DNA from: Candidatus Omnitrophota bacterium
GTDB taxonomy: Bacteria > Omnitrophota > Omnitrophia > Omnitrophales > Aquincolibacteriaceae
Assembly: GCA_035352955.1 (NCBI GenBank)
Contig: DAOPYQ010000003.1
Span: forward strand, 208,206 to 272,205
DNA: 64,000 nucleotides
Reading direction: 5' to 3'
Made by a program: the position numbers and the translations under genes. The notes under the pieces are model-generated. The model did not search any database. It had not been told where the DNA came from and saw only the letters and a program-made list of their open reading frames with translations. The number at the start of each line of letters is the position of its first letter. Position 1 is the stretch's first letter. This document shows, piece by piece, positions 1 to 47,960 of the stretch.

Positions 1-3000
1 TCGATGATCCGCCCCTGATACCTCGCGTCACTCCAGATCTGATCCGCCGTCACCTTACCCAGCGATTTCACCGCTTTTTCGTAGTACCAGGGATCCCACG
101 CCGCCCCGCCGCTCTTCCAGCCGACGATCCCGACCCCAAGCAACCTCCTCTTCGACACATTCTCATAAAGCTCTCCGACAGTTTTTACAAGGTCGATCGG
201 TTTGTTCGCGTGGAGATAAAGCGTGTTCTCGCCCATATTGACCGCCGCAAAACCAAACGTATCGCGCGCCTCTTTCGCCATCTTCACCAGAGCCCTGACG
301 AACTCCGGATAACTCCCGAGGTTCCACTCCGGCGTTCCGGGACCCTGCTGGTAATGTTTGACATATTTATCGAAAGACGCCGCTCCCAGGGTCCCTGCTT
401 CAAAGAGACCCTCCACCCAGTTGATCGGAGGATGACCCGGGAAATCTCTATCCAAAGCCGCTTTCTTCTGGGACAACCACAAAAACGCCGGCCACGACAG
501 CGAATAGCTGCCGTGACTGGCCACAACTTCTTCACCTTCGAATTCGTTGATAAGCCCGTTCTTCGGATCCGCTTTTTCGATCATCCGCGTGATCGGCTGA
601 ACTCCCGGTTTCCTCGGTTCCGGAACCTGAGCCGCGCCGAGTTTGTAGACCTCGGGGTTATTCTTGTTATAGGTCTGTCCATAGAACGCAAAACCTTCAT
701 CGATCGGATAATTGACCTCGAATTCGGGAGCGACCGCGGAATCCACCGCAAGGATCACAAGACGCGGGCCGACCTGAGAATCGTTATAGAGAACACGACC
801 GCGCTCCACCTGCTCCAGATAGGTCATGGCACCGCTCGGAGTCATCGTAAGCCCCTTATTTCTGAGCGAATGTCCCGCGGAAAGCATCTTCATCCTCGAT
901 CCTTCACCCGAGGTCAGGATCACAATAACCGTCTTGTCTTTGAATCTTTCCAGGACCTGCTCATTGGTAAGCGAAACTCCGGCCGCCCCCAACGATTCCC
1001 GCAATCCCTTCAAGATGGAATCAATGTGCCCGAGACTTCCCTCGCCGGATTCCGCCGCAATCACCAGGGGGATCTTGGAAGGCGAGAAAAGATTGGGTTG
1101 CTGCTTCTCGAGGAGTTTCCGCGTCTTCAAAACCGTTTCAGGGGACGTGATAACCATCGAAAGATCAACATCTTCGCCCGTCCGGATGGCGCGCTCAAGA
1201 CGGGCATTTGCTTTCTCAATATTATGCTGAACGAGATCCCAGCTGGGCACGCCACGGAGCTCGGCGCGGCCCTTGGTGCCCAAGATATCCTGGATCAACA
1301 CGATCGCTTGCTCCCGGGGCATCGTCGTTGCGGTCATAGATGCCCAGAGGCTCTTCGCCGTCACGGCGTCGAAATCCTTCTGCGATTCAAAGGGGAAAAC
1401 CCGGTCGATAAGCTGCGAAGAGCCGAAAGTCTCGCCCGGAAATTCGGCGGAAATATCCCCCCCGGTCTCACGAAGGACGAGATACGCGCTGACTTTCCCG
1501 TTCTTCTTCTGCCAGACCACGCTGTTCGGGACTTCACGTTTGTAAAGTTGCGGTATCACCAGTTTCAACGCACGGGCCACAACCGTCCAATCCGCGGCGC
1601 TCCAGCGCGTCACGAACACATCTTCCTCTTTCCAGTTTTCTCCCTCCGGCATCCCCTTGACCGGCCCGCGAACCTCTTCGACCGACAATCCGGTAAAGCT
1701 CTGATCAAGCCCCTCGGTGATCTTCCGACCTTCCGCATCCGATACCGCCGTCACTCGAGTCTCGTCCCATTCCGGCCCGAACGAATAGATCTTGGCATGA
1801 ATGTGAGGCTGGGACGAACCCGAAAGCGGCCCGTCAAAATGGATCGAAAGGTTCTGCGACTGCGCGACAAGCGCCGTCAGGTCGTCGATATCGCTATCGG
1901 TAAGTCTCTGGAGCAACAACTTGTCCTCCGCGTCCCAACGGGCCGGCACCAAAAGGAACGATCCCTTGGCATCGACTGGGCTGAGATTATGGACGATGAC
2001 CCATTTCCGGCCGTTCACTTCAACCACCGCGATAGGTTTCCGGTCACGAACCGAGAACTGCCCGCTGCAGATCGAACACTTCGTCTTGTCGTGGGTTTCG
2101 AAACGCGCTTTCCTCTCGGCAAACGCCGTGGGGCCTGTCGCGTTCGGCCGAATGCCCCGATGCCACACAAAACTCACTTTATAAGGTCCGACGACTTTTT
2201 CCTGAAAAACACCCGCGTGATCCTTACCCGTCAGGACCTCCGTCGCAAAATGTTCGATCGAAGCGCCATGGGAGGAGATCCTGAGGCCGCTACGGTACTC
2301 ACGGCCCGAAAGATCCCGCTGCTGACTGGTCACGTTCCCGCTCTGGATCATCGAGATCCATCCCGCGGTGAGCTCCGTGTTCCCGATCATCGCCGGGTGC
2401 CGTTTCATCTCGAAAATATCCGCTGAACCGGGCACCCGCCGTTCCTTCCGGAGCCCCTGCCCTTCGACTTGGGCTTTTTCTTCAGCCGTTACCGGCACGG
2501 TCATCATGATCGCGGCCGTTCCCGAAGGATAATAAGGATCACTGCTCTGCCCCGCGACGGGTTTGCCGTCTTCGAGCTTGAAAGCGTCTTTGCTGTTGGC
2601 CAGGATATGCGCGGCAACGATCGGATCGTCCTTGAACTCCGGCTCCAGGTTTTTCTGACGGATGAGATTCTGCATTTCTTCGATGCTGTAACCCTTGCCG
2701 CCGTCGGCCTCGCTCACATATTTCTCACCCGGGAGAACGATCATGACCGCGCGACCTTTCGCCGTCACGGCGATCAGGTCGTTCGGGTACCGGGCCGGGG
2801 TCAATTTAACGTAGAGTTTGTTCGCGGCAATAAAATATTCGCCGGTTTTCATCTCGCCCGCCGGTTTGGGCTGGATCCTGTGATAGCCCCAGAGCCAATT
2901 GGCGATCGCGCCTTCTTCGATCGCTTCGAGAACTTTCCCGTTCCGGATCATTTGGGCATACCGGGCCAGTTCCGCCATGGACTTCGGATCTCCGGCCTTT

Positions 3001-6000
3001 TCATTCTTGGATCTCGCTTCAAGGTCCGCGGCAAGCGCCTCGCGTCCCGCTCCCGTAAGATAAGGCGTCAGATCCATTTCAAAATAACCGCCGTTCTGCG
3101 CCGCTTTCAAGATCTCGGGGCGATCTTCCGGCACGATCGGACGGGCCTTACCCGACATAAGAATATCCGTATAACCAAGCGCCGTTCCGTATTGCGGCCT
3201 GCCGTCAGCTTTCCTGGCCATGAACTGAATGGAATTATAGGTCTGGTGCCCGTCGCTGAACTGGTGAGCGATCTCCGCCAGGGAAACGTTGTGCCGAACC
3301 GTCGCTTTCCCGTCCACGACCGTGTCGTTCATGATCCTCTGGCCGAACGTCGCGAAAGCGATCTCGTCACCGATGTGTTTCTCGGTCTTGTCGGCGGCAC
3401 GATAAACACGCACGCCGCCTTTGACCGAATGATCCGTTAGGAACCGGAAATCTTCGGAGGAAGCGCGACCGTCCTTCCAGACAACGGCCATGCTGTAAAC
3501 GCGCTGGCCGAACGGTTCCCCGCCGGAATAATAGAACTGGTGTTTGTTCCCGTCATACATCACGACCCAGTCGTTATGCATGAAATTGTGATTGGAATAA
3601 AGGACCCGGTGCTCTTTCGTAACGTCGCGGGATCCCGCCTGAGCCTCGATCGTTTCCCACGAGACATCCACGGGATTCGAGTGAGGCAAGGTTTCTCCCA
3701 TGAAAGTCTGCGTCCCGCCGATTTGATCGTCATAAAAATTCCCGTTCAACGACCCTGTCAGGACCTTCCCGCTCTTTGCGGTGAGCGTGACAGTTTTCAA
3801 CAGCTGATCGTTGACCAGGAGTTCCAGCCGCCCGCCCGCGGGAATAAGATCAAACGCCGGCGTGAAAGGAACCGACGATCCGACCTTCACGATCCCGGTG
3901 GCCTCAAACACCCGTCGTTCTTTACGCTCGCCAAACCGCCAGTCCTGATAGCCCGACACGCGGCGAAGATCTCCGACTCCGGCGATCGTCTTGAAATCCC
4001 AGATCAAACCCGAACGGAACTTCTCGTAATTCGGATTGGGATCCATGATCGGCTTGCCCAAAACGGGGTCGACATCGAGCATCGCGTCCTTCCGGGTCAA
4101 CATGGCCTCGGACTTCAAATGACGGGTCAGGTTTCCGGAAGCCAGATCTAGCATGAACACACCCGGCATCTTTTTGTGGGGGCTGAACGCGATCGGCTCC
4201 ACGAGACCGCCCAATGACTCCACGGCATTGAACGCCTTCTCCCAGTTCACGATCATAAACAAACGGTTGTAGGGATTGTCCGGAAGCCGCTGCGCTTCGG
4301 GTTTACTCTCCCACTCTTTGGAGAGCGCGCGCAAACGCGCCTTCACAGCCCAATCCTCGGTCGCCATGCCCTCCACAAGGAAAGAAAAGGGATCGCTGCC
4401 GCTAGTTCCCAGTCCCAGACCGCCTTTCTGCCTCGGGGTCGTGAAATTGTTAAGAGCCCAGTACAAAAGTTCCGTTTGGTGTTTTTTCTGGCGATCCAGA
4501 TACAACGCGTACATTTCGACCGGTACCGCGCTCTCCGGACGCAACGGGATCAGATCGTTCACGCGGTGGACCAGGAACGAGAGATCCGAAACCTTCCCCT
4601 GGTACCGCCCCTCCACGTACTTGTTGGCCGGCATTGCGGAAGGCGTAAATCTCTGCGCGCCCTCATCCCAGGTCAGGGAAAACCACGGCAATCTCGCGTT
4701 GGAAATATTGCAAGCGTGCCCGTAATTCTTCCTGTCAGGAACGAAGATCAGACGACCAGCCCCTTCCTCCTTCACGTACTTGAAAGGCATGGCATTATCC
4801 GGATTCATGACCATCACGATATTCCTCGGATCGAACCCGAAAAAGCGAGTGCGCCCGAAAGAAAGTTCCCGCTCGACCCTAAGGTCGCGCTCGACATCCT
4901 CGGCAACATTTTCGTTAACGCTGATCATCACGATCTTGTGTTTCAGAACCTCTTGGGGATCCAGACCCAGCGCCCGGCTCTGACTGACAAGCCCTTCACT
5001 CAGGGACAACAAGTGCCGGGCTCCCAATCCGAGATGTTTCGCCTCTTTCGGGAGCCCGCGCGGATCGTCCGCCTGTTTGATCAAACCCTCAAGATCCTTG
5101 ACCAGGTTTTCGACCGCCTGATATTCTTCACCCTCGTCCTTCACTTCCTTCTTTTCTACGGCAAGACGCTCAAGCTCCGCCTTCTGCTCTGCGGTCGGAA
5201 GATCCCCGATCTGTCCTTCGAGCGCCTTGAGTTCACCCGCGAGCCGCATAAAAGTCTTGACCTCAGGCTTTTGCGCCAATTCGCCAAGCACCTTTTTCTG
5301 ATCCGCCAAAACACGGGCCATCGCGGACCGGCGTTCTTTGAGGAGCTGGACCAGTTTCCAGGTGTCAAGATTCCACATGCGATAGGCGTTCTTGGTCTCC
5401 GGATTCTTCAAGTCCTTTTCCGTAAGAACGGCCGCGGGGCGCCCCTGGTCCTTATGCGCTTCATCCGTAAGACTTTCCCACAAACGCGTGGCCTCTCCTG
5501 CCGCAAAGATAAATTCCACAAGAGAACCGGTTCTCAACCCTTGCCGGGCGGGCTCAAGATCGGGATGCTCATCCTCCAGCCACAAGAAAGGAGCCGTCCT
5601 TAACGCGGGGACCAGTTTTTTCAGCCATGCCGAGTTAACGATGGACAGATCTTTGACATTCCCGCTAAAATTCGCTCGGTTCAGTTCATTCTCGGCTTGC
5701 TGCTTCCAGCGAAGGCTGAAGGAACGGTAGGCGATTTTCCTCAACGCCTGGCGTTCCATCGCCTGGGTCCACTCTCCCAGAGCCGCTTTATTCTCCTGGT
5801 ACAAACGGATCAGTACCAGACGCTCGAAGATCCGGAGGGTCAGTTCCGTGAGGGATTTCGCCAATTCGTCCGCGCGCAAATAAAGAGTGTTCTGGGCCGC
5901 CTGATATCCCAGATGCGGCATCACCCGCGGATCCGATACGACACGAACTTTCAGGACCTGGCGAACCCATTCTCCGTAAGGATCAAACGCTTTCCCCTCA

Positions 6001-9000
6001 GGTCCGCCAAACTCGGAAAGCGGCCAGGTAAAACCTTCCATCATCCGCATAGCATCGTCCGTCTTGGTGTGGCGGAGGCGGACGATAGAACGGCTATGAT
6101 AGCGCCCCCCCATGACCCGATCGATCTCTTCGGTCGCGCGATACACCGCCACACGCAACGATTCCGCAAGGGCTTCATCGTCTTCTACGCGAATCGAATC
6201 CAGGACCGCCTGGATCATATCCCGGCGAACGGGATCCGCCGCCTGATACTGCTGCGCCAGGGTCGACAATTCGGCGTTGGACAACAGACCAAGAATATCA
6301 ACACCGGCCTCACGAGAAATGACCGCCCGCGCCGTCTGGCGCTTTTCCACGCTCGGCGAATAAAGATCATTTCTGAGGTCCCAATCCGAGGCCCGCTTCT
6401 CAGCACGCAGAAAACCGCTATTGCGGATCCTTCGGTCACTGTATCTCAAAACAGAGGCCAGACTGGAAAGACCGGACGCGTCTTTGATATCAGCGATCCG
6501 GGCCTGCGGCGAGACCTCGGGATTATAGGTTCCCCGGATAGGAAGAATGCCGTCTTCATGAAAAACGTCCCTCCGCCTCATCATGGCGACCGAACGGATA
6601 AAATCCCCGGCCTTTATCGCTTCGTCCGAAGGCGGAATGGTCACATTCCCTTCGGGAAGCTCAAGAGTCCAGAACCCGGGAGTGGGCTTGTGCGCTTTCA
6701 ACGCCATGGTGAGCATCTGGTTATGTTCCCGAAGCCAGCGATACACCGGCCGGAAACTGACGATCTGGTGCATGCGGTTGAACGGCAGATCGGGAAGATT
6801 CAGTTCGGCCTGCGCCTGAAGCGAAAGAGTTTTCAGAGCCGCCTGGACCGCCGGCGTATAGGTCGCCAAACCCTCCACAAGCATTGAGAACGGCGCCGGA
6901 AGATCCTTGTGCCCGAGCGCCAAGCCGCCCTTCTGACGGGGTTCCGTCATATTGTTCAGGACCTCATAAAGCACCATCGCATTATTTTCCGAGGCGAGTT
7001 TTTCAAACAGAGCAAGCATGGGAATGTCCACAACGCTCTCGGGCCGCATCAGGATCATGTCATTGATACGGTGCACGATCCCCAGGAGATCGTCCGCGCT
7101 CTGGTCCTCCCAGGTCTGGATCACCGGCTCGGCGACGGACACGAACTGCCGCCGGACAGGATCGAACGAATAGGTCATGTAAGGAATATCGGCGTTGATC
7201 AGATTGAAAGCGTGGTTGTAGTTCGCCCCGCGATCCGTGTACACAAAATCCCGGGTCTCCGGATTCCAGGCGAACGCAGGCGGTTCGTCGGGATTGTAGA
7301 CCAATTTGACGTTGTCGGGGTTCAAGCCGAAAAAGTTGTTCTCGACAAAAGTTTTTCCGATGTCCTCAAGGATCTGCCGGTTAAACGAAATGATGATCTT
7401 TTGGTGGCTCAACGCCTCCGAAAAATCAAAGCCGTACTTTTGAGCGGCCGCCCGCAAGCCTTCAACAATCGTCCAGATATGACGTTTGCCGAGGCCCCAG
7501 TCCAGGCTCCCTTCCGGAACCCCTTCCCGGGCCACTCCAATCAGGTGGTCCAGTTCACCCAGTTCCGTTTGCTTTGCTTTCTTCTGAGCTTCGGTCAGGG
7601 CACTTTCCGGGGCAACTTCCTTCAAGAAGACCTGACGCTTCGCCTCAAGCTCCGGCAACTTGTCCCGAAGGCGCTGAACGATGCTCCAGCCGTTGAACCG
7701 CCACATCCGGTACTGAGGATCTTTCGCCATCTCCGGCGTGATAATGCCCCACTTCACAAGACTTTCACTCAAACGGCTTGCCGCTCCGGCCGCAAAAACA
7801 TAGTGGATCACACGCCCTGACCGGACGGCTTCTACGGCCTTGGAAACATCGATCCCCCGGGTTTCATCTTCATAGAAAAGAATCGTGGGCATCCGGAGAT
7901 CGGGAAGCATGGCCTCGACGCTTCTGGCGTTCAACGCATCGGCGGCTTTTTCGTCATCGCTTCGCTTGACGTCGCTCGGCCCTTTGGTCCCGTTCGGGGA
8001 CATCGCCGCATATTTTTCCACCGAAAAATCCGGCGGCAAAAAGTCCTTCATGCGCTGGATCGCGTCCAACCGTGCGGGGAAAGACTTGTCGCGGGCAACG
8101 TCCCGAACCTTCTTTTCAAGGTCTTCGTTCCACCCCCCGTATTCTTTTTCGGCGCGCTGACGGGCAAACAATTCGATCGCCTGCTCGATAAAATAAGCCG
8201 TCACCCAGCTTTGCGGCTTCTCCTTGATATCCGACTGCGGGATGTAGATCGCATTTTCCCGCATCTGATAGATCCAGTCAGGCGCCTTGCCTTCCTTCCC
8301 CACCGCAAAAGGAACGATCCCCGACAAAACCTCATGAACGTTAACCGTACCGAGGCTCCGTTCTTTCCCGTCCACCCGAACGTTCGGAAGGACCACCACA
8401 AGCCCTTCGGTGGCACGGAGCGCTTCGATGAATTTGGGATGATTTTTGGCCACATAAAAATTCTTCTCGGCCATGTAGAACATTTTCAGGACATAGGTCG
8501 CCGCGGCATGCAACTCCGGTTCCACAAGCGGATTTTCAGCCTCGGCGGAATTGACGATATCCAGCAACCGGTATTTGCGGGCATTATTCTTCTCTGTGAT
8601 CAAAGCCTCGATCACCCGGTCAGCGTCATTGTCCCACCGCAACATATTCTGGATGTCCAGTCCGAGCGCATGGCCCAGCATGATCCGGGCCGCCAACCGT
8701 TTCTTGCGGGCCAGAGGATCCTGGCTGTCACGAAGGAACAACCATTCGTACGCCTGGCCTTCAGACGACGGCCGAACGTCATCGCGTTTTTCGGCGCGCA
8801 AATCCGGAGAGACGAACTTGTCTTTGCTGGCGAGAAGCCCCGCGAGATCATTTAGCGGGCTTTCGAGCGCACGGAGGCTCTCGCTCACCGCGAGCTTCTT
8901 GGGATCACGCGGCTCCGCAGAAAGCTTCGTGACAACCGCCTGGATCATAGCAAACGCCTCGAGGGGACGGCTGTCGATCGCCAGGCTGACCGCCGACAAC

Positions 9001-12000
9001 TGCGCTTCAACTTGATCATCCTTCGGCAAGAATTTAAGGATCGCGGATTTCTGCTCGTCAAAAAGTCTCTGGATACTTCTGCGGCGGACTTCGATGGCTT
9101 CACTCGTCGTGACCCGGTTATAGAAATCCGACTTTACTTCCGTGCGCAGCCCCAGGCCCGCCTTCACGAGATACGAGTCCACCTCTTTTGCGTCCAGGCT
9201 CGCGGCTTTCAACCCCGCTTCGATCTGCGCTTCGGTAAGATCTTTTTTGTCCGCGGTCACGGTCACGACCCCCGCGGCTTCCAGAACGTGGACCGTGTGG
9301 TTCTCTCCCAGGATCGCTCCGACCTCGGCAACCGGCGTATTCGGTCTTCCCATGAAAACAACGACCTGCCCCTTAGAGATCATGGTCCAGTGCGGGATCT
9401 GCTCATCCTGCAGGACCTTGATCAGCTTCATCGAACTCGCGGTAAGCTCCTTTTTGTTCACGCCGCGGAAGATCACATGGGAGAGCGGCCACTCTTTGAC
9501 CTGAGAAAGGGCCACGTTTCCGTCCCTTCCGATCGTCTGGGCGCTCGACGCAAGGCTCTCGAACGGCAATCCGAACGTGGTCACATGGATGTGGAGCTGC
9601 TCGGCCGTATACCATTCGGTATTCTGAAGGAACTTCATCCCGGGATTCTGTTCGGCCAACGTCAGTGAGGTATCGACGTCGGCGGCAGTAAGGATATTCG
9701 GCCGCACCGTCTCGTCGTCCGAGATCATCAGCGTGTGGTAAGGGACCGTAAGTTCCTTCGGCGCTACCATGAAATATTTCCGGCCAAAAGCCAGCGGGTG
9801 GAAAAGGATCCCTCGCTCATTGAGAAACTTCTGTATCTTTTTGAAATAAAATCTCGTGAGATCCGTAGGCCGGTTCGGCTTCAGGCCGTCAGTGTTGGGC
9901 TTGCCCTGAGCGGCCGGGTCGATCGCCAACAGGAATTTTCCTCTAAAAAGGCGTTTGGGAATGTTGGCCTGGTTGTCCCGGACATAGGCATTCCCGCTCC
10001 AGGCGTTTTCAAAACCATGCTGAAAGCTATCCAAAGCGACTTCGTTCCCGCTATTGTCCAGTACCCTCGCAAGCTGCGGCATCTGTTCGAGCGTTGCGAT
10101 CGACTGTTTCGCGACTTCGCTTCTCGGAAGAGGCGCCGACCACGGATCTAATTGACCGTTCGCGTCTTTGTGATCCGGCCACGTATCGATCTTGTTCACT
10201 TCGGAAAGAGCAAGCTTGCCCTTCTCGACCGCGGTCTCATCGGACAGAGCGGCCACGTTCGGAAGATACGGAGCGTAGCTGAAGATCCGCATGTCCTGCG
10301 GGGCGATGCCGAGCGCCTTGGGCAATTCAACGACAGCGACCGCCCCGGCCCTCGCCTGCAGCCACGGCGTCTGGATCACAAGCACGCGCTTCGGCGAAAA
10401 ACCTTTCGGGAAATTTGTGGCGGCGCGCATCACTTTCACGGAATCGCGGAAATTAGACCCGGTATTCCGGGAAGTGATCTCCGTCGCGGTCACAGGAGCA
10501 CCGTGTTCTGCCATCACGTTCGCGTAATACGTCGCTTCCGGGATCCGCTGCCGGGTCTCAGGGTCCGTATAAACTCCGGCGGTATCGGCACTCATCCCCC
10601 ACATACCGCTCGTGATAACCGGCAAGTCCAGGTTCGCGCCACGAAGCGTCTTCACGATCTCCGCGGCATACAAAGGCACCTGATCATCCGACGAACCAAG
10701 CACCAGGACCCAATCCACATTATTCAAAAGATCCGCTTCGGTGACCGGCGTCCAAGTACCGGTCGTGCCGTCATAAACCGCCCGTTGCGCGAGATGATCC
10801 TCAAGAAGCGCCTGTTGATTCACGTCCAGCGTCGCCCGGTCTTCCGGCGTCAACGCCCTTTTCTCCGAACGACCCGCCGGCGCTGCCTCCGGACCGGCAG
10901 ACGCGGCCCGTTGAGCCAAAGCGCGCGCAGCCTCTTTCCCGGCTCTTTTTTCATTTAGCCAGGCTCTGACGGAATAGTAAACGCCATTATTACTGAACCA
11001 CGGGAAAAAGCTGACCAATACGATCATTGCGAAAATGGGCCAAAAGACCGGGAAAAAGTTGATACAGGCGAACAACAGCCCCATCGTCACGACCGTTGCG
11101 GAAATTTGATACCACTTCCCGAAGGAACCGATCCACCAGAGCAGGCCACCCATCAACCGGATAAAGGTACTGGCAATGATGAACGTCGCCCACCCCATGA
11201 ACACCGGATGAGCCCCCTGGAGAGCAAGACCAAAAGCCTGGCCGCCCCCATCCATCGACATCCCCCCGGTCCCTGTCCCCGCCGCGACAAAGAACGTGTT
11301 CGGGTCGAACTGTTTGTTGAAAAGTCCGAAGAACTGCTGGAGCGAGTGAGCATAAATCATCGCCACCGTTGAGAAAGCAGCAAGGATGCCCCGAGTCATC
11401 GACATCCGATCCGCCTGGACCGTCCCTGTCAAATCCCCCTTCTCTTCGAAAATATTTCCGTCCCAGGAATCCCCAACGGACTTCGACAAAAACCCGAACC
11501 AGAGAGGCATCGTCAGCGGAAGGTAATAGTACGGCACGACACGTTCATGGGAAAGAATCGGCAGAAGCAGACCCACCGCGATCAGGATCCCTGAAACCAG
11601 GAGAAGATGCGAGCCGATCCTGCGGAACGCCACGGCCTCATAAGGCTTCCGGACCTTGGACCCGCGGTGGTATTCATTCCACAACCAGAAGAGACACCCC
11701 GCAAGCGCCGCGTAAAGCGCTCCGGCCGTCAGGAAAGGAACCCCGAAAACGACTCCCACAATAAACGTAAGAATAATGGCCCCGCCGATAAGAGGCCCCT
11801 TTTTCGTTTTGCCGTACGCGTCAAGCCACAGTTTCAGGAACAGGGTAAAAGAACTCGCGTGTTTCGACGCGATAAAGGGCTTGATGTCTTTCTCGCTCTT
11901 AAGCCCACGGATCTGGCTAAAATGATGCTTCGGGTCCTTGAGCCAGTCCTTTTCCAGATACTGCGAAAGCCGGTGTTTGTATTCATCGGAACGAAGCGCC

Positions 12001-15000
12001 GGACGGATAAATGCAACGTAAACAATGAACGCCGCGGCCACGAAACCGCCAAAGCTCATCCACGCCCACGAGGCTCCCATATAGGGAAGAAGCGCTTTCC
12101 CGACAAGCAGAAAGACCGGAATGAACCCAAGCAGAAGTCCGCGACGGGTCGTGTTAGGACGGGAAAATTCCCCGAGCGGTTTGCTCTCGGAAGAAAGACT
12201 CGCGGGTCTGGCCGGCGGTGACGCAAGCTGATGGTGAAAACCCCAGAAGTCTTCGGTCGCTTCGACAATGTCCATCACATCCAGCACGGAAGTCAGGTAG
12301 GTCGTACTGCCTTTTTCATCCGTCCACCGGAAAAGATCTTTAACCAGTTCAAAGATCTTTTTAAGCATTCCCGGCCGCGTCACCTCTCCCCCATAACCTT
12401 TCACCCCGCTGAACGGTCCCCCGATATTCTGAAGATAGTTCAACACGGCGCCGAAAAGCGAGGGCACAAAAACCATTGTCAGGATGATAAGCCCCAGCGC
12501 CTGGGCCGCACCGACCGCCGAGATCCCGTAAACTCCGGGCACAAGCGCGGCATACAGCATGAACACGAGCGTTGAGCGCCACATCGGATTATTAAAGATT
12601 CCCTTGATCGGCTTATCGTCCAGATATCTTGCCGCACGGGTCCGGGCAAAGCTTTTTCCGATGAACCTCAACCACGTCGTCGGAAGATCGTTCGCCCGCA
12701 ACCATTTATCCATCTTCTGGATCTCGGACAAAAAGTGCATATCGCGATCGTCCCCGATAAGCGCCTTACCGTCAGCACGGGCCAGGAGAGCCGTGCTCAT
12801 TCCCTGGAAAGGCGGTTCGATGCTGGCAAGTTTTTCGAAAAACTCGAACGACAGATTATCCAGGGCCTTATCACTCCAGGGCATCCCTTTCAAGTGGACC
12901 TTTTTCCAGAGCTCTCCCTTCGGAGAATCCGTTTCCTGGGCCGTCTTGTAGGCACGGAGATTTTTAAGATTCGCCCGCGCCCAACGGACCTGTTCCCAAC
13001 TGTCCGAAAGCGTCGCCGTCACGATCTCGTCTTCACCGTTGGTTTTCGCCGCCAATCCGTTGTCGGCGTTCAGGTTCAGGTCCCCCTGTTTCAGCCCCAA
13101 GATCTTCTCTTTGTCCAGTGTATCCAGATGCTTGAACAGAATACCGTCAAGGAGAACGGTCCGGGTGTAATACGGCCCCCAAACAAATCCCTTCGTCGGC
13201 CTGGCCATACGGCGCGAAACCTTGGTCGGGATGGTGTATTTACCGAACGCGCGATTGTAATTCACGAGACCTGCCGTAAACATGACGGTCGGGAAAAGCA
13301 TCTTGTGGATCGCCCGTCCCTGCGTCCATTTCATACTGGCCTTCTTCTCCTTGTAGAAGGTCGCCCCCTGAAGAACGCCGATATCGGGCCGCTTGGCGAG
13401 CGCCTGCACGAAATAAGGCACCGCGCCCGCGAAAGCGAAATTCGCGCCATCCACCGTCGTGGTAAACCTGACGTTCGGCTCCGGCTCGCCTTCCTCATCA
13501 AGCACGTATCGGGAAGTCTTCCGGATCTCTTCCGGATAGACCGACGCGAGAAGTGTCCGGTTCAGCCACTGTCCTTCGAGTTCCAGGGTTTTGATCTCCG
13601 TCTTGAGGGATTTCACTTTACGGCTTGCGGCCAGAACCTCTTTTTTCTTGGCGGATTTCTCCGCGTCGTTCGTTTCCGGCATCGCGTTGGCAGCCGCCAA
13701 AACCTGTTCCGCCGCCGTCAATGCGTTCCGCTTGGCCCCCAAAAGATCAGCCACCTTCATGTCCCGGGAAATCAACGGGAGATACGCCGTCGCGCCTTCC
13801 AGCTGCGTCTCGATCTCACCGTAATGTTTCGGCTCTTTGGAGAGAACCGCCGCAACCGCATCGCACCAATGTACATAGGTCTTGGTGTTGATGCGTGCCA
13901 TAACAGGTTGAAGGATCGCCTGCCACGCCGCGTTATCGTTGGCCTTTTCAAGCTTTCCGAGGATGTCCTGGGTCACCAAGCCAAGCTCTCTCAGGATCGC
14001 AAGATCGCTCGCGAGGAATTTCTTTTTCTCGGAACTTCTTTCAATAAGGTCTTTTTTCAGCTTCTGGATCCGCGCCGACATCCCCAGATCCTCCCATGCC
14101 GCGCCAAAAAAAGCGCCTTCGTGTTGAACGACGGCATTGACCGCATCCAGCCATTGGGCGCCCGTCATGGCATTAAGATCGTCAGGAGTAACCGTTGCAG
14201 GTTGCAGCCCGAGTTCCATCAAAATGAACTTGTCGCTATCCCGCAGAGTCCCGGCAGCGATGCGGGTCTTCATCCCGGCAAGCAATAGCGGGATATTCAG
14301 ATCCGAAGCGAACACGGCGTAAGAATCTTTTTTCCGCGGCATGAGAGCCTGGATCATCGGCGTGTCCTTCACCTGATCATAGGGAACGAACCAGCTGTCT
14401 TTGGTCGCCACACCGAGAATGAACGGGGTTTGGGGATTATCAAGCATCGGGAGAAACGCCTTGTAGGGATTGGCGACGGACATGATCTCCGCGGAATAGA
14501 TCGCCGCGAACGCTTTTGCTTTCGCCGCGTCGATCTTTGCCTCGATCTCCGCTACTTTTTCTTTCGCTTCATCCAGTCTCTTTTGTTTGGCCTCTTTGTT
14601 TTTTAAAAATGTTTTCCTCAATATTTCCGCAGCCTTTTTCGCCTCGGCCTTCGCGGCTTCCAGCTGGGACTCCAACGGGGCAAGCCCGCTCAAAATACCC
14701 TGGGTCTCACGGACTGTGGCAAGGGCGGCACCCAGCTCATCGGCCGTGGCACCGTCAACCACGGCATTCCGGATCCCGTCGCCGTAGAGCGCCTCCAAAA
14801 ACACCCGGTTAAGGAAATTCCGCACGGCTTCCGGTTTCTTGACATCCTCCTTGGCCTTTGCAATAGCCTCGAGAGCCTGTTTGACAGCCGCATCTTTACC
14901 GGCCTTCTCGGCAGCATTGGTCTCCGGCATTCCCTCGGCCGTCGTCAAAGCCGCCTTGGCAGTCTGCAGCGCGTTCTGCAAAGCAGTTATGTCACCCGCT

Positions 15001-18000
15001 GCGGTCGCAGCGCGATCGAGCATTTCCTGGGGCACACCCGCGGCCTGCAACTGTAAAAGGACCTTCTGGTGAAGAGCCGTATCAGCCATCACTTTCCTTA
15101 GAGCAGCGATCCACTGGGCTTCCGTAATAGAATTGAGCTGGGCCGGAGTAACCGTAGCGGGATCCAGACCCAGAGCATTCAAAATGAGCGCGTCGCTCGC
15201 ACTCCCGGAAAGCACCGCCGCCGCAAGCGACCGCGAATTGACCTTCAAGGAAAGATTGGCCGTCACATTCCGGTTAACAGCCTTCCTGTCCGGATTTGTG
15301 TCATCCTTCAACGCTGCCCGGAGTTTTGCGGCACCCCGCTTGATATAAGCTTCGATCGAAGATCGGGAGCCCAAAAGGAACGGCCGGCCGCTGCGCGTGT
15401 GTACTTCCACCGCATCCGGATCCGCACCGTGAAAATCTCCGGCGCCGTTCCCCGGCGTGCCGTCCTCGCCATACCCCGTAAAAGAGCCGAGCATCGGAAC
15501 GTTCCTGGCCGGCTTGCGGTCTCCGGGCCAATAGGAAATCATCATGCGCTCGTGCCCCTCGACATACATTCCCTGTTCATCATCAAAATAACCGAGATAT
15601 TTCCAGTAAGCCTGCGCCCGCTTATGAAGTTCTTTCATCATCACTTCGGCCGTCATGTCCCCGGTCTTGGAATCCGTGATCTTGGCTACCCAGCGGGCAC
15701 CCGCCTGAAGCACGACCCGGGCCTGTTTAAAATTGCTCCCGATCAGGATCCTTGCCAGCGAATTCACGACCTTATCCAGATCTTCCGGTCCGCCATCCAT
15801 GAGCCAGGGTTGAGCGGTCAGCACCAGTTCCCCTTTTTCAAAGGCATACTTTACGCCTTTCGGCAATTTCTTGAGCATATTGGCCAAAAGGACATCGTTC
15901 AGATCCAGCACCCGGATCCTTTTCTGGAGGGCGGTTTCCCGTTCGGCTATGCTCTCTTTCCAGTTTTGGATCGCACCGGCGTAAGTCTTTTCAAGCGCGT
16001 CACGGTTCAGCGATCCGATCCCTGCCCGAAGGGAGGCTTCTTCAATTCTTGCGTTGTTGATCTCTTGTTCCGTCTTCAGGAGAGCCTTCTCACCCGCATT
16101 GACCTCGTAGATCATCCCCAAAACCGTCTTGCTCGCACGGGAGAACGACCTCTCCAACCGAATCTTCCGCTGCGACAACGCTTCTTTTTCCGCTCCGGGA
16201 TCCATCCCTTTAAGCGCATCGGTCGTCTTCTCCAAATCCGTCTCGATCGTTTCCATCTCCAGCTTTGCGGCTTCCAGAGAGGATATCCTGTCAATGAGTT
16301 TGCAAATGTCCTCGAGCTTCGCCTGTTCATCCTTCTGTTCCTGAATGTCCAGCGCCAGCTTCTTTTTATCTTCCCCGTCGGGCAATCTCGCCAGCTGCTC
16401 GTTCATTTTCTTGAGATTGTCCTTGAGCTCCTTGATCCGAGCCTCGACCAAAGCGACCGTCTCGTATTTAACTTCCCTGGGAAGACCTTTCACAAGATCC
16501 TTCAGCTCTTTCCCGGCGGCATCCAAAACAACATCGGCCGAGGCCTCGATCTTCGCGGGTATATTGCGACGAGGCGTGTCGTCCGTAAGAAGGTCGTTAA
16601 GCGCCGCCGCCAGCTGATCTTTGGTTGCGCGGTCGATCACCTCGGCATAGGTTCTCCCCATAACGCCAAGCCCCACGAGCCTTTCGATAATCTTGTCGTT
16701 CGTCTTCCTGAAAGAAGCATTTTTCAACATAGCTTTAAGACCCGCGACACGGGCGTCGGGGATATCCGCCGCGGTAAACGCTATCGATCCCGCAAAGGTT
16801 CCGGCAAGACGTACTTGTTGGCGATGATTTTCGTACAAAGCCAACGCGGCATCCGCTGCGGCCACAAGTTGCGTCAGCAAGGGATCTCCGGGATTAAGAG
16901 CGAGCCTCTGCCGGAGAACGATCCCCTGAACAAATGCTTGCGCGGTAAATATATCGGCGTTGCTTTGTTCAATCTCTCCTTCCGGTGCCTTCGTCCGGTC
17001 TGCCGCGGGGATATTCTGGAAAACCCGGAGCAGGCCGATCTCATTTTGCAGACGTAAAATATCGGCCTTTTGAACCGCTGTACGCGTGGCCTCGGGTATC
17101 GCAAGAAGCGGCGCGACGGCGGTCTGTCGCTCCGCCACAAGGGCCTCAACCTCATCCACGGACAGTTCAAAAGAAATTCCGTTCGTTGCCGCAAAACCCT
17201 GATAGAGACCCGCCCTGGCGCGGGTCAGATTAAGGGCGCCGGTCAACTCCTCTTTCGTAGCGCTGTCGATCAGGACCGAATCATCCGTAACGGGTTTTTT
17301 CTTTTGTATTTCCCTGATCTTTCTCAGACTTGCGATCACAACCTGATTGATCTGCGCGTTGCTGGGATCCTTAAGCGCCGCGCGCAAAGCAGCTTCGTCC
17401 ACCGCGTCCTGGGAGATGAGGCCGCTGTTGGCCACCTTATCGATATCCAGAGCTTCCTGAAGGACCGCGTCAAGCTCGGGTTCAGACATTTCCCAATTCT
17501 TCCGCTCCTGAAGGGCCCTCTTTCTCGAAGCAAGCGCTTTTTTTGCGGCGGAAATTTCCGCGGAAGTTTTCCCGTCGGCTCTCATCGTGTTGATTGCATT
17601 CGCGTCCGCCAGGATCGCCTGTTCTTCCTCATGGATCTCCGCCTGTTCGTCAGCCGGAATATTCCTTTTCCCGGAATCAATGTCCCCCCTGACAAGACCG
17701 CTATACCGGTCATTCGCCATCCATACCGCCAGAAGGAACGGAACAGCGACCAGGGGAAGGCTCCACCAGTTCAACACAAACCACGCCACGATCGGCCCCC
17801 ATCCCAAAAACGCGATCCCGGCAAAATAGCCCCAGGCCGTGATCCCTGCGGCGACAAGACCGGTCAGCAAAAAGAACCCTTTCTGTTGCGCCAGGAGCGT
17901 GGCCCAAAAAGTTTCGCTTAAGCTGTTATACATTGACTTATAAATGAACATGAAGAGCACGACAGCCACCGCCGAAATAGCGACCGCCCACGGCGTGACC

Positions 18001-21000
18001 ACTCCCAGGGCCCAGAAAATAAAGATAAGATCGGTAAACCCGAAAAGAAATTTCCCGACCACCATGCGGAAATCGGCCCATTTCCTGTTCGTGATCCAGG
18101 CTCTTACCTGAGCCGCTTTTTCAGCTTTCACATCCGCCCGCAACTCCGCTCGCACTGAAGATTGGGCCAACGCTGAACCATAAATTTGATCAAGGAGGCC
18201 ATAGTTCAGGCTCCGAATTTCTTCTTTGCCCGGCAGGCCTTCATCCGCCGCAGTCTCGAAAGCGCTCCGAACCGCGGGATCAATACCCCGGTTCGAGATA
18301 GTTTGCGCTATATCGTTTAATCGGCGTTCGGCATCGGCCAACGCATTTCCAGCTCGTTCAACCTTGCGCCCATCAAAGAAGACCGCCATCCTGGCTTTCG
18401 TCACATCAAAATACCACTCGCCCTTTTGGGACAACCAATCGAACACGTTAGAAACATATTCGAGAACTTCACGGATCGTTTCCACACGGAAAGGCCAAAT
18501 GACCGGCCGCAACGCCTTAACCTGATCCCAACGATGGTCTATCTCGCTGCGAACCCGGGTCTGCAAATAATCCCTATCGGCCCGGCTGGTCGCCTGATCA
18601 CGTTGTTCAGATTCAAACTCAGCTCTGAGGATCTTGCTACGGGATATGGCTTCTATCCACTGTTCCACTAACCTGTCGACTTTGGCAGGTTCCAAACCTT
18701 TGGCGATCAAGGCTTGCTTCAAATCCTCGATACTTTCAATTCGTTGAAGCAACCGCTGCATCTCCAACGAGAGTTGTGTCCTGTTAATCTGACCGGAAAG
18801 AAGCTGCGGCAGATCCGTACGATCAAGAACCTTATTAAGCGCAAATGCCATTAATGAACCATTGTCCTGTCTTTTCAGATTGCGCAGAATTTTCTCAAAG
18901 AAAGACGTCTTAGCGAGTTCTCCTGATATAAGGCGGTCGCTAGCCCTATCTTTTCCAAGCTCACTATTTAAGGCAGCGATATCCATTTGGGCCGGCGTAA
19001 ATCTGACTGCCCGGGTCATATATTGGTACTTGGCAAATTTAAAAATCACCCGGAAGAGCAGCGCCGCAAAAGCGGCCGCGACACCATAGAAGAAGATCTG
19101 CTGAAGAGGGGCTTCGACTCGGCTGAAGTTCAGGAAATCGGGCAACTTATGTTCCGTGTTGCTCCACGGAAGCCTGAAATATTTATTCCCGGCATCGAAA
19201 TTGATCCCTTTCGAGAAAAAGGTCTTTTGCCCCTGCTTGCCCGGGATCTTCTCCGCGGGCGCAACCAGGTCCATCCAGTCCATGTTCCCACGCTGGGTGA
19301 TCGCAGCCGCCTTGTCCGTCAGGATCTGCTCGCGGGCATTCAGGTCGGTTTTGGGAATATACGGCACCAAAACCCCGTTCTTGTCCCGGGAAGAAAGAAG
19401 GATTTCATAAAGACCCAGTTGCTTCGCCGGGTCGGGATTCTGGAGATCCTCAAAGACTGCGATCCAGAGCGGTGACCCGAGCTTTGGCTTCGGCCGGGGA
19501 TTCGAAACGATCCTTCGTTCATTCTCAGCCTGATAGGACACGTCCAGCAGGCGCTGGTATTTGTCCGTCACACGCTGCATAAAATTGAAAAGATCGAGCG
19601 GCGTGATCGCCCCCTTATCGAGAAGCGCCTGGACACGGGCTTCAAGAGCCCGGAGCTGGATCGCCTTAAGCTCCGGATCTTCCTTCCATTTTTCCTCTTG
19701 GGTCCTTTCAATACTGATCTTCAGAGAATCGCTGTAGATCCGGTTGTCATTGAACCCTTTGTCCAGAGTGTTATCGATCCCGGTCTGACGCTCGTCCTTA
19801 ATGAAACCTTCCCGACTGTACCGGGCCGCCGCGGGAGTTTCCGCTTCGACTCCTTCGGGAAGAAGTTTGTAGAGGTCCATCGCCCCGTCCTGGCCGAAAA
19901 ATCCACCGAACAACGCAGGAACAAGCCTCGCGCCAAGCGTAGACTGCCAGGCAACGGGATCGGGCTGAGCGGCAAGCCCCACGTCGAGGAGGCTGTCCGC
20001 TTCAAAAAGGATCCTGCGGATATCGGGATCCGGGTTCCCGGCCGCTTTGGCACGGGCATACATATCTTTGGCAAGATCCAGCCACTGATCAAGGAAGGCC
20101 TGAGGGATCCCGCGGTTCGCGCTCCCCTCCGCGATCCTCTGGAGTTCTTTTTCGAATTTTTCCTCCGTCGCAAAGAACGGGACGGCGGCCCGCTGCCTCT
20201 CCGAAATGATCCCCGCAACGCCCTTGGTCCCGCGGATCCCGTCAAACCTCGTCCTTAACGAATCCTCCCGAGCCTTAACATCACTGAATTTTTTCAGTTG
20301 TACCTTGATCTCCTCAAGAAGATTTTCGGGATCGCCGTCTTCCGGCGAGAACACGTTTTTCCCGTCATCACTCGTTTTCCAAAATCCATTCGCCTTAACG
20401 GTCGCCCGGTCCAGGACTTCCTTGGACCGGTGGAACACCTTGGCCTTCACAATACGGTCCTTGACCTTGTCGAGAGACTCGTATCCCATATCCTTCAGAA
20501 TACGCGGCATGATATAACCGTTCAGGAACAATATTTCATCCGCCGAATACCCCGTCCGGAGCATCTCCCCGGCGAACAATTCCAGCTCGGTATTGTCGAA
20601 GAGGATCGGGGAATCTTTCAAAGCGCCGGCCTCCTTATCGTTCAGGACGTTTCGCCGGTCGCCAAGGACATTAAAGGCCTCTTCAAGAACCACGTCATAG
20701 GGCGCGGTCTGATAGATCCCCTTCACGGCATCAAGTCGCGCTTGACGTTTGTCTTCGATCGCCTTGCGGCTGTTGGAAAATTCGTATTCCAGGTTCTGCT
20801 GCTCCCCCGAACGCTCGCGAGCCTGGCGGTCCTTCTGGACGCGGTAATTTTTAAGAAACCAGTCCGCGTAATCACTCAGGAATTTTTCTTCGCCGAGGTT
20901 CGACCGCCCGGAAAGTCTCGAGAGATCGCTCACCGGACCGTAAGCCGCACGTTCCAGAGATTCCTTGGCGTCTTTCAGCGCGACCATCAGTTCATAGAAG

Positions 21001-39366: not shown

Positions 39367-39439
39367 TGGACCTGAGGGGAATCGAACCCCTGGCCTCCGC
39401 AATGCGAATGCGGCGCTCTCCCAGCTGAGCTACAGGCCC
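39367..39439 (-). tRNA. tRNA-Ala, anticodon CGC
   Basis: Seen in sequence: the rc is GGGCCTGTAGCTCAGCTGGGAGAGCGCCGCATTCGCATTGCGGAGGCCAGGGGTTCGATTCCCCTCAGGTCCA. It folds as a cloverleaf with a G3:U70 pair in the acceptor stem (the alanine identity element) and an anticodon loop TTCGCAT. It has GTTCGATTC in the T-arm and a discriminator A. CCA is not encoded. Confidence 0.9.
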
Positions 39440-46593: not shown

Positions 46594-46965
46594 TTATTTT
46601 TTCTGCGGCCGCTGGGTGAGGAACGCCTGAAGGCGCTGGCGGGATAATTCGTCAATGTCCAGGAATTCAATCCCGGTGTCAAAATTCTTTTTCACGGAGC
46701 GGACCTGCCCGCTCGGGATAACCCATACGCTGCGCCCAAGGCACTGAACTGGCGGTTCCCCATCCTTGAGCTCGAGGCTGATCTTGCACCGGTCGAAACG
46801 CTCGAGGGCTTCCTCCAACATCACGCTAACGCCCCCCATGCCGACGTTCTCGGTAGTCGTTTTAAAAGCCCTGGCTTTCCCCTGAGGATGGATCACGACC
46901 TCACAGGATAAATGAAGTCTTGGAAATTTTCTTTTATTGAACCCGTCCCACATAAAATTTGTCAC
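46594..46965 (-). CDS. PilZ-domain protein
   Basis: Contains RKFPR (RxxxR) and a degenerate second motif ENVGMGG. Length is 123 aa. It overlaps the upstream SPOR gene by 4 nt. Confidence 0.6.
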   Translation of the reverse strand: MTNFMWDGFNKRKFPRLHLSCEVVIHPQGKARAFKTTTENVGMGGVSVMLEEALERFDRCKISLELKDGEPPVQCLGRSVWVIPSGQVRSVKKNFDTGIEFLDIDELSRQRLQAFLTQRPQKK

Positions 46966-47960
46966 GAGGTTGTCTTCACGAAAGCGTCCTGAAAGGGCCG
47001 TGCCACTTCCAGAGCGCGGAATTTGACAAGCTGGGCCTCGGCCTCGGCCTCGGTACGGAACCCGCCCAGGTGCACGATATAGAACACGCGACCGCTCGGC
47101 CTGACGCTTTCCTTAACGAAAGCTTTGAGCTGCGCGCGCCTGAGAGAATTCACGATCTGTTCGGCATCCGCAAGCGCGGGATAGGTCACCACCTGGATCA
47201 CATAAGGAAGCGCCGGCGTTCTTTGAACTTCACGGGAAACCGTCTTGGCGGCCGGTTTGGGCGACACCGGCGTAATCACAACCGGACGCTCCGCGACCGT
47301 CCCGGAAGGCGTCACCGCTCCGGCAGCAGGCACAGTCCCCGAAGCCTGTGCCGCTGATTCCGAGGGAATCTTGTAACGGGTCCGCATAGCGGTCTCCCGT
47401 TTAAAATTAAGGGCGTTGACGCCCCAAAAAAGGAGGAAGATCACGAGGGCTACGGACCCCCAGATAAGGACCCGGCGCGCGACAACGCGGCGAGGGTCCA
47501 GCAACCCTTTAAAAAATTCCGTGACCGTAGTGAAAAATCCGGTGATAGCGCCCCAGGAAAAAGAGATTTTCGATGTGGGAGAAGATTGATGATAGCGAAA
47601 ACGCGAATACATATCCGTCGCGGCATTGCTCCCGCCAGCAGGAACTGTCTTTTTCTCGAATTCATGAAGCGGAACATGCCGGGAAACGCTTTCGCTTTCG
47701 CGAGGTTCCCGAACCTCGCTCGGCGCCTGGATCAAAACATCCCTGTGGGGAGGCGTAAAAAGATCGACCGGTACAGCGGACGGTTCCTGCGGGGGCGCCG
47801 CAACCGTCGTCGTATCACGATAAGTCTCGCGGCCGGCCCCGGCGGCAACACGGGGAGCTTCATCGCCAGCGTAAAATTCGCCGTAAAGTTTCTTCTGAAT
47901 TTCGGCCTCAGTCAACAAGGAAACGTTCTGGTCTTTGTGCTTCTTTTTGAAGAGTGCCAT
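46962..47960 (-). CDS. SPOR-domain membrane protein (septal peptidoglycan binding)
   Basis: Single TM segment (VALVIFLLFWGV). Pro/Ala/Thr-rich linker. C-terminal SPOR-like fold signature YVIQVVTYPALADAEQIVNSLRRAQLKAFV...GRVFYIVHLGGFRTEAEAEAQLVKF. Confidence 0.65.
   Translation of the reverse strand: MALFKKKHKDQNVSLLTEAEIQKKLYGEFYAGDEAPRVAAGAGRETYRDTTTVAAPPQEPSAVPVDLFTPPHRDVLIQAPSEVREPRESESVSRHVPLHEFEKKTVPAGGSNAATDMYSRFRYHQSSPTSKISFSWGAITGFFTTVTEFFKGLLDPRRVVARRVLIWGSVALVIFLLFWGVNALNFKRETAMRTRYKIPSESAAQASGTVPAAGAVTPSGTVAERPVVITPVSPKPAAKTVSREVQRTPALPYVIQVVTYPALADAEQIVNSLRRAQLKAFVKESVRPSGRVFYIVHLGGFRTEAEAEAQLVKFRALEVARPFQDAFVKTTS

Follow-up and report, generated by a model that had tools for sequence, protein, structure and literature searches.

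Enzymes belonging to the histidine-triad (HIT) superfamily use the second histidine of the triad as the nucleophile, and the zinc ligands of GalT are a CxxC pair, a mid-domain histidine and the first triad histidine. Among the systems closest to the domain reported here are the GDP-D-glucose phosphorylase GDPGP1 and the plant GDP-L-galactose phosphorylase VTC2/GGP, which carry the DUF4922 domain and, within the superfamily, count as GalT-branch enzymes with an HxHxQ motif (PMC7041677, PMC11047344, PMC10069634). In this work we focused on a region of a giant open reading frame (ORF) in a 64,000-nucleotide stretch of DNA from a Candidatus Omnitrophota bacterium (assembly GCA_035352955.1, contig DAOPYQ010000003.1, positions 208,206 to 272,205 of the forward strand), hereafter called the window. 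We propose, with a probability of roughly 0.6, that residues 12076-12451 of the encoded protein make up a histidine-triad domain with two lobes, which belongs to the GalT branch and is most likely an active nucleotidyl-transferase or phosphorylase acting on a nucleotide conjugate, most probably a nucleoside-diphosphate (NDP) hexose, in a nucleotide-sugar cassette.

The triad of this domain ends in a lysine, and the only precedent that a literature search for the HxHxK motif brought up is a clade of Hint-type HIT phosphoramidases, MccH. MccH is a homodimer of the Hint branch of about 120-150 residues, which hydrolyses aspartamide-adenylate (10.1101/2020.03.04.977132). Its third histidine is replaced by lysine, its N-terminal partner histidine by phenylalanine, and a glutamate has been gained; the K103H and H101N exchanges each abolish activity, K103 being essential (10.1101/2020.03.04.977132).

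The giant proteins of Omnitrophota are almost wholly unannotated, and the 12,874 residues considered here gave a single, sub-threshold Pfam match. In the papers on these proteins that were text-searched, 'histidine triad', 'nucleotidyl', 'Ap4A', 'DUF4922' and 'uridylyltransferase' are all absent. In a giant that otherwise has no annotation, the HIT domain is among the few parts that can be recognised as an enzyme. Judged from its sequence, it has diverged within a known superfamily, carries an HxHxK variant specific to its clade, and is unusually placed, in the predicted soluble tail of a giant protein. If a domain of the GDPGP1/Ap4A-phosphorylase type is indeed present, twice, near an epimerase/dehydratase, it would provide a concrete biochemical handle on the giant protein, and such giants may be multi-enzyme nucleotide-sugar assemblies as well as adhesins.

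Identification of the domain

The giant ORF extends over positions 3..38606 of the minus strand, on which all domains and motifs described below for this protein also lie. It belongs to a stop-free frame of 12,874 codons that runs from nt 38624 to nt 3 and is still open at the low window end; the first ATG is at 38606, and hence at least 12,868 residues are encoded within the window. The domain of interest (the query) was delimited by the envelope of a family profile at positions 1272..2399 (aa 12076-12451, approximately 375 residues), and comprises an N-terminal beta sub-domain followed by two HIT-like halves.

One conserved motif is HRGIRP (aa 12155-12160, positions 2145..2162), which corresponds to R-x-L-R-P in the family, with R77 nearly invariant in our family alignment A2. 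Next comes KCSICSGQ (aa 12182-12189, 2058-2081), with the cysteine pair C12183 and C12186 of CSIC (2067..2078) lying within HDKTKCSICSGQ; the stretch around the pair translates as ETHDKTKCSICSGQFSVRD (2043-2099), the family consensus is PHD...C-S-x-C-x-G-P, and the E. coli GalT counterpart reads PAHDPDCFLCAGN. The HIT strand N-x-x-P...G-H-x-L-L-V-P is represented by NLSPVDAKGSFLLVP (aa 12213-12227, 1944..1988), where Ser12222 occupies the usual histidine position, and the overlapping translations are PVDAKGSFLLVPARWDAED (1923-1979) and FLLVPARWDAED (from aa 12223, 1923-1958). The histidine-triad motif itself, SGSSQPHIHAKIY (aa 12268-12280, 1785..1823), contains H12274, H12276 and K12278; SQPHIHAKIY (aa 12271-12280, 1785-1814) and SQPHIHAKIYSF (1779-1814) are translations of the same segment. 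The motifs had been predicted earlier from the letters of the sequence, and their translations and coordinates proved accurate to within a few bases (ETHDKTKCSICSGQFSVRD, predicted at 2041-2100; PVDAKGSFLLVPARWDAED, at 1921-1980; SQPHIHAKIYSF, at about 1770-1810), as did the lysine at the third triad position in place of histidine or glutamine. The spacing of about 75 residues then given between CxxC and HxH is to be corrected, since the cysteine pair lies 88-91 residues before H12274.

Beyond the triad, an insertion separates the two halves (aa 12283-12334, 1623..1778). It is specific to the query and its two closest relatives, P0002 and P0003 (the query clade), in alignments A2 and A4, is longest in the query, and was modelled less confidently, in blocks with a predicted local distance difference test score (pLDDT) of 60-91 and dips of 60-71. 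The C-terminal HIT-like half (aa 12335-12451, 1272..1622), with FVTRWSA, YLVLRE and EFPGETFGS, matches the ATP_transf/GDPGP1_C region of the homologues.

Chance alone would give 0.004 CxxC in the giant ORF, and one was observed. HxH is expected about 1.9 times and was observed twice, which is not significant alone; both HxH sites lie in regions matched by one and the same domain profile. A profile was built from 36 family members, excluding the query clade, and this clade-free profile scored 198.9 bits against the query domain, while the best of 500 composition-preserving shuffles reached 5.0 bits. This difference indicates that a genuine conserved domain spanning aa 12076-12451 carries the motifs.

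Relatives of the domain

Residues 12120-12470 were used as the query of an exhaustive phmmer search in a database of 1.84 billion representatives. At E<=1e-3 there were 72 proteins (numbered here with the prefix P), 13 of them at E<=1e-10, counting the query's own fragment P0001, and each relative was matched in two separate stretches. The closest relatives, P0002 (3,350 aa) and P0003 (1,748 aa), are large proteins and share 41-45% identity with the query over the matched 320-340 residues or so. The domain also occurs within other giant proteins, namely P0005, P0006, P0010 (two copies), P0012, P0027 and P0072, and about 55 relatives are free-standing proteins of approximately 350 residues from bacteria and microbial eukaryotes. 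P0007, P0009, P0019 and others come from microbial eukaryote transcriptomes (MMETSP, of which P0007 is one transcript), in a eukaryote-like sub-group that lacks both cysteines (DSFVTGP). A word-indexed homologue search found nothing with the query sequence and returned 4 proteins with the family alignment. Collections of genome and metagenome contigs, searched with the single sequence and with the clade alignment, gave no relatives of the domain and hence no further members of the lysine clade.

Alignment A2 covers a domain of about 360 positions. Its early motifs are W..V..G.I, R-x-L-R-P and P-H-D...C-(S)-x-C-x-G-P; they are followed by W..Y-x-N-x-x-P....G-H-x-L-L-V-P, Q-x-L...D..D and F-N-S..A-G-A-S-Q-N-H-I-H-x-(H/Q) in the middle of the domain, and by P-F-N-L and Y-L-x-x-R....E..E-F-P towards its end. 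Both triad histidines are invariant in the 39 aligned relatives of A2 and present in 70-71 of a wider set of 73 sequences. The N, P, G and P of the N-x-x-P...G-H-x-L-L-V-P strand are nearly invariant across the family, and of the 16 positions that vary little or not at all, 15 are retained by the query. The first cysteine is found in 57 and the second in 55 of the 73 sequences. In P0002 and P0003 the second cysteine is replaced by Asp/Glu, and since the eukaryote-like sub-group has lost both, CxxC is common in the family without being obligatory. As far as the alignments and profile matches indicate, this is an unnamed family which overlaps the Pfam entries GDPGP1_N/GDPGP1_C, DUF4922 and ATP_transf.

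Placement in the histidine-triad superfamily

The sole Pfam match in the 12,874 residues was Ap4A_phos_N (PF19327; E 2.6e-4, 21.0 bits for a cut-off of 23.1), which covers only profile positions 117-159 and, in the query, aa 12239-12281 with the HIHAK loop. The NCBIfam scan of the query region and of the giant protein gave no match, and on the query itself no match was obtained with DUF4922, ATP_transf, the GalT models PF01087/PF02744 (at E<=1) or the HIT model PF01230. Searching the C-terminal 795 residues against the PDB with phmmer returned nothing relevant. The relatives, scanned singly (n=64), matched DUF4922 in 12 cases, ATP_transf in 9 and Ap4A_phos_N in 3; P0011 passes the DUF4922 gathering score (24.2 > 23.6), and the Ap4A-family matches are all sub-threshold. 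PF26216 (GDPGP1_C) is precomputed for P0049, P0073-75 and P0078, with a weak PF26217 (GDPGP1_N) in P0078 as well, and phmmer links the query to these GDPGP1-annotated relatives at E-values of 1e-5 to 1e-23. The profile search suggested along with the original prediction was thus successful in part, with a sub-threshold Ap4A_phos_N in the query and DUF4922 and ATP_transf in its homologues, and it failed for PF01087 and PF01230.

The family profile searched against the PDB had as its top match the yeast Ap4A phosphorylase Apa2 (4i5t, with the Pfam domains Ap4A_phos_N and ATP_transf, PF09830; E 1.6e-7), with positions 133-325 of the profile aligned to residues 89-307 of the chain, in both halves. 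Weaker matches were obtained with Fhit (0.036-0.15), with 1z84 (0.064, in the R-x-L-RP..CxxC part) and with small HIT proteins. When the family was aligned with E. coli GalT using hhalign, HRAKRP, PAHDPDCFLCAG and GCSNPHPHGQIW paired with HRGIRP and the other query motifs in the same order; this match is weak (E 0.004, probability 8%), and BLAST against the same protein aligned only the triad loop (E 0.07). The AlphaFold2 model computed from A2 has a pLDDT of 87.4 and a predicted template-modelling score (pTM) of 0.88, and shows the beta-beta-beta-alpha-beta-beta pattern of HIT proteins twice, after a small beta sub-domain. Foldseek gave one significant match in the PDB (E 3.6e-4, probability 1.0), the DUF4931 protein 4qvu; DUF4931 belongs to the Pfam HIT clan.

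Taken together, the Pfam matches of the relatives, the Apa2 match, the hhalign result, the model and the Foldseek match assign the region, on profile and model evidence, to a two-lobed HIT domain of the GalT branch, nearest to the GDPGP1 and Ap4A-phosphorylase families. The query has the two-histidine motif H-phi-H-phi-x-phi-phi of the superfamily (H12274-I-H12276-A-K-I-Y) and the alpha+beta HIT fold in the model; at the third triad residue, which is His in the Hint/Fhit branches and Gln in the GalT branch, it has Lys12278. The single chain with a catalytic N-terminal and a non-catalytic C-terminal half, typical of the GalT branch, is seen in the Apa2 alignment, the paired phmmer stretches and the topology of the model. 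The earlier suggestion of a HIT module of the GalT/Ap4A-phosphorylase kind is therefore supported by the Pfam matches of the homologues, by Apa2 and by the model, and the fold check proposed with it came out positive. Two narrower assignments were rejected: GalT proper, with no PF01087/PF02744 match, and Ap4A phosphorylase proper, with Ap4A_phos_N under its cut-off and ATP_transf not matched by the query.

With GDPGP1 and VTC2 the query shares the two-lobed GalT-branch architecture of about 350 residues, the N-x-x-P...L-L-V-P strand, and the (A/G)(S/T)xNH-x-H-x-(Q/H) motif with its nucleophilic second histidine; the family of the query is also associated with NDP-sugar enzymes. The query differs from them in falling under the DUF4922 threshold, in its lysine instead of glutamine, its serine for the 'GH' histidine and its GalT-type CxxC, and also in its position, since it lies at about residue 12,100 of a membrane protein of 13,915 residues and is not a free cytosolic enzyme. 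The catalytic loop of Apa2, SGSSQDHKHLQIM, is nearly the same as SGSSQPHIHAKIY of the query, and both have a C-terminal 'Y-x-x-x-x-R' and a G-motif, whereas Apa2 has glutamine in third position and lacks the N-terminal R-x-L-RP/PHD..CxxC segment. Like E. coli GalT and At5g18200 (the plant ADP-glucose phosphorylase, 1z84), the query presents HR..RP, (P)HD...C-x-x-C-x-G and S-x-P-H-x-H-x-(Q)-I-(W/Y) in the same order. The query has C12183, C12186 and H12274 as candidate residues of a GalT-type zinc site, but the mid-domain position, His115 of GalT and its third zinc ligand, is Ser12222 in the query, and Gln168 of GalT is replaced by lysine.

The triad lysine and coupled substitutions

At the third triad position, 35 of the 73 aligned domains have His, 31 Gln, 3 Lys and 1 Asp. 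The lysine occurs in the query, P0002 and P0003 and in no other sequence, and these three have kept the residue at 38-42% identity. Other substitutions accompany it. The 'GH' histidine before LLVP, found in 66 of the 70 other members, is Ser, Gly or Ala in the query clade, and a clade substitution scan showed that the asparagine of F-N-S has become Asp, Glu and Asp, respectively (D12264 of 'HFDGP' in the query, 1833..1835). Positions 12268, 12368, 12390 and 12407 also depart from conserved residues, so that, together with the lysine, seven conserved family positions have been altered jointly in the clade. In a second deposited Apa2 sequence the second triad histidine reads Ala, which fits the role of this residue as nucleophile.

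The lysine of MccH, the loss of the N-terminal partner histidine and the gain of an acidic residue (motif ExxxxxHxHxKxx) have their counterparts in the query, and since the same three-way change has taken place in the unrelated MccH branch, we argue that the query lysine may be a functional replacement, as a phosphate contact or proton donor, rather than a sign of decay. The query nevertheless departs from the E-x5-H-x-H-x-K pattern, as position -6 is Ser12268 and the acid, D12264, stands at -10, and it is a two-lobed domain of about 375 residues. The change must have arisen independently of MccH, because MccH is a Hint homodimer and the query a domain of the GalT branch with both lobes in one chain.

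It is conceivable, though doubtful, that the query clade defines a catalytic subtype of GalT-branch HIT enzymes, in which lysine has come in, the partner histidine has gone and an Asp/Glu has been recruited, as an independent re-invention of the MccH solution. Its chemistry or substrate would then be unlike those of all assayed GalT-branch enzymes, and it might belong to a set of enzymes incorporated in the giant membrane proteins of Omnitrophota, by which activated sugars or nucleotide conjugates are made, edited or destroyed when prey or host cells are contacted. The clade-conserved HxHxK with its coupled changes represents a natural experiment on how the third residue tunes HIT catalysis, which has so far been documented experimentally only for MccH.

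Second copy of the domain

A second, more degenerate copy of the domain was detected in the same protein at aa 9635-9821 (9162..9722), with hmmsearch using A2 (E 1.6e-15) and with the clade-free profile (50.0 bits). It was found with the family profile only and was missed by self-BLAST. Its triad segment, EQLHIHVTTFG (9570-9602), keeps HxH and has threonine in third position; there is no cysteine, and the glycine-rich loop has been altered from AGASQNHIH to WYTAEQLHIH.

Neighbouring modules and nucleotide-sugar partners

The domain is followed by a module of about 600 residues without detectable family (aa 12452 to approximately 13050, positions 3..1271 and beyond the window), which is conserved in the orthologue P0003, with 34% identity over an alignment of about 640 residues. 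Nucleotidyltransferase-like modules had been predicted next to the HIT motifs, and this module contains TSGEGSRMK (888-914). It had no Pfam match, and against the PDB it showed only a weak hexapeptide-repeat similarity (LpxA-like, E 0.019) located at or past the window edge; an hhalign comparison with the NTP_transferase encoded in the P0078 operon (described below) was negative. The GxGSR is not kept in P0003 (MSGLAKRLS), and an AlphaFold2 model based on the two-sequence alignment was unusable (pLDDT 36.8). Pfam, PDB, hhalign, conservation and model having all failed, we do not endorse the nucleotidyltransferase label. A word-indexed search with the alignment of this module found nothing.

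Enzymes of nucleotide-sugar metabolism are found further on and in the relatives. About 200 residues past the window end, from approximately aa 13071, the giant protein contains an NAD-dependent epimerase/dehydratase (PF01370, E 9.6e-12) with visible GxxGxxG and YxxxK. P0003, a protein from an Omnitrophota metagenome-assembled genome (MAG), has no annotation other than 'NAD(P)-dependent oxidoreductase'; over 1,506 residues it is collinear, at 38% identity, with aa 12059-13516 of the giant protein. P0002 contains, in this order, a short-chain dehydrogenase/reductase (SDR), the HIT-like domain, an epimerase/GDP-mannose-4,6-dehydratase (GMD)-like domain (4e-56 / 2.6e-47) and a nucleoside-diphosphate kinase. 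P0005 also has a methyltransferase and a GT87 glycosyltransferase, P0006 a NUDIX domain, and in P0072 (1,148 aa) the domain is fused to a starch/glycogen synthase. The free-standing P0078 (L086/L087, 8001-9071) stands at the end of a run of genes on the same strand, which encodes an epimerase/GMD-like SDR, a methyltransferase, an NTP_transferase, a PIG-L protein, a carrier protein, an AMP-binding adenylating enzyme and an ornithine/diaminopimelate (Orn/DAP) decarboxylase; from its gene content, this run looks like a pathway for a modified, perhaps amino-acylated, sugar nucleotide. The recurrence of sugar-nucleotide enzymes as fusion and operon partners leads us to favour a nucleotide-sugar substrate.

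Proposed function and alternative explanations

Homology, motif conservation, fold class and domain neighbours are matters of observation. By homology, it is most likely that the domain is active, that it works through a covalent intermediate, that the lysine has a role in catalysis, and that its substrate belongs to the nucleotide conjugates. By the mechanism common to the branch, H12276, the predicted nucleophile, would attack a nucleoside-diphosphate conjugate, most probably an NDP-hexose, at its alpha-phosphate. A covalent nucleoside monophosphate (NMP)-histidine intermediate would form with release of sugar-1-phosphate, and the NMP would then be passed on to phosphate or to another phosphorylated acceptor, such as a sugar phosphate. 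K12278, in the place of the third His/Gln, would hydrogen-bond or protonate a phosphoryl oxygen or the leaving group; the partner 'GH' histidine, here S12222, would be dispensable, and the acidic D12264 would have been gained. The domain would work within the nucleotide-sugar cassette of the soluble C-terminal 4,700 residues or so, together with the degenerate second copy and the epimerase/dehydratase.

Several points weigh against this proposal. The query has neither His nor Gln as its third triad residue, and GalT is crippled when the corresponding position is made basic (Q168R in E. coli, Q188R in human). Also missing is the 'GH' histidine, equivalent to a zinc ligand of GalT, and the closest relatives also lack the second cysteine. 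By itself, the query stays below the curated thresholds of Pfam and NCBIfam, a PDB search with a profile made only from the query clade found nothing, and the Foldseek match has low TM-scores (0.27/0.44), with GalT and Apa2 absent from the Foldseek list. The 'nucleotidyltransferase' predicted next to the domain found no support in the searches, and the putative substrate is deduced from the neighbours.

The same fold and covalent-histidine chemistry could also be directed at dinucleoside polyphosphates or nucleotide anhydrides, as in the Ap4A phosphorylases/ATP adenylyltransferases Apa1/Apa2, and would then control nucleotides of the alarmone type instead of sugars. Apa2 is the best solved relative (E 1.6e-7), Ap4A_phos_N the only Pfam match of the query, and SGSSQPHIHAKI of the query is very close to SGSSQDHKHLQI of Apa2; ATP_transf was matched by 9 of 64 relatives, and fusions to NUDIX (P0006) and nucleoside-diphosphate kinase (P0002) would suit such a role. 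We consider it unlikely, however, since enzymes of sugar-nucleotide metabolism predominate among the partners (epimerase/GMD, glycosyltransferases, NTP_transferase, PIG-L), free-standing relatives are assigned to GDPGP1_N/C, and every Ap4A-family match stays under its gathering score.

Alternatively, the lysine could mark a change of chemistry as in MccH, the domain being a hydrolase of a P-N or unusual P-O nucleotide conjugate (for instance with a protein, lipid, glycan or toxin) with the lysine as proton donor. The coupled pattern is alike, with third His to Lys, loss of the partner His and gain of an acid; MccH is inactive as K103H and its specificity has been narrowed, and the seven conserved positions of the query clade have likewise shifted jointly. 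MccH is, however, a small Hint-branch dimer and the query a two-lobed GalT-branch domain, the acidic residue is at -10 and not at -6 from the first histidine, and the window shows no candidate substrate or toxin context while the conserved neighbours are sugar-nucleotide enzymes, all of which makes this explanation improbable.

We give equally little credence to a catalytically dead or impaired domain that would serve as a module for binding or scaffolding nucleotides or nucleotide sugars. Such decay could be read from the loss of the canonical third residue and of the 'GH' histidine, the missing second cysteine of P0002/P0003, the plainly degenerate second copy in the giant protein and the long insertion beside the motif in the query. 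Yet both histidines and 15 of 16 near-invariant residues have been kept, the substitutions are conserved within a clade of about 40% identity instead of being scattered, and lysine is a proven catalytic substitute in another HIT clade, that of MccH. Finally, motifs arising by chance in an unrelated domain, for which one could cite the two HxH sites where about 1.9 are expected and the absence of a curated model over threshold, have a negligible probability and are ruled out by the rarity of CxxC, the phmmer homologues, the Apa2 link, the shuffle test and the confident two-lobed model.

The giant gene and its locus

Beyond the low end of the window the giant protein continues for 1,047 residues, to a full length of 13,915 aa. 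The gene has been called at the same locus as 13,915 or 13,941 aa in ENA ERZ795026, JGI 3300010352 and NCBI GCA_035403665.1. P0001, a database fragment of 5,491 aa, is 100% identical to aa 8431-12874 of the frame and provides the C-terminus outside the window.

A crude hydropathy scan revealed about 16 transmembrane (TM)-like segments in four clusters (aa 18-36, 1021-1356, 6510-6967 and 8686-9194; approximately nt 11040-38570 of the window). The last segment is aa 9176-9194, after which the scan found nothing hydrophobic; as the last TM-like segment ends at aa 9194, the C-terminal 4,700 residues or so, including the HIT-like domain, are predicted to be soluble. Giant proteins of Omnitrophota have been described as multi-TM (10.1101/2023.11.21.568195), and the TM pattern of this protein agrees. 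Cysteine is very scarce, with 7 in 12,874 residues (0.05%), of which 2 make up the CxxC and the others are at aa 7441, 8254, 8977, 9187 and 11305. Self-BLAST detected no significant internal repeats in the giant protein, and the first 12,000 residues of the ORF had no Pfam match.

The flanking genes are ordinary bacterial genes, coding for LepA, signal peptidase, BatD, M16/M48 peptidases, PilZ, YajQ and tRNA-Ala, and the neighbouring LepA is 93% identical to LepA of Candidatus Omnitrophota MAGs. The West-Roberts preprint mentions PilZ genes close to giant genes (Fig. 7C legend). The tRNA-Ala(CGC) gene (39367-39439, minus strand) separates the giant gene from an upstream alpha/beta-hydrolase gene. 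Farther upstream, between the ORFs at 43220-45289 and 46962-47960, lie two PilZ genes, YajQ and a cyclic-nucleotide (cNMP)-binding, patatin-like phospholipase gene.

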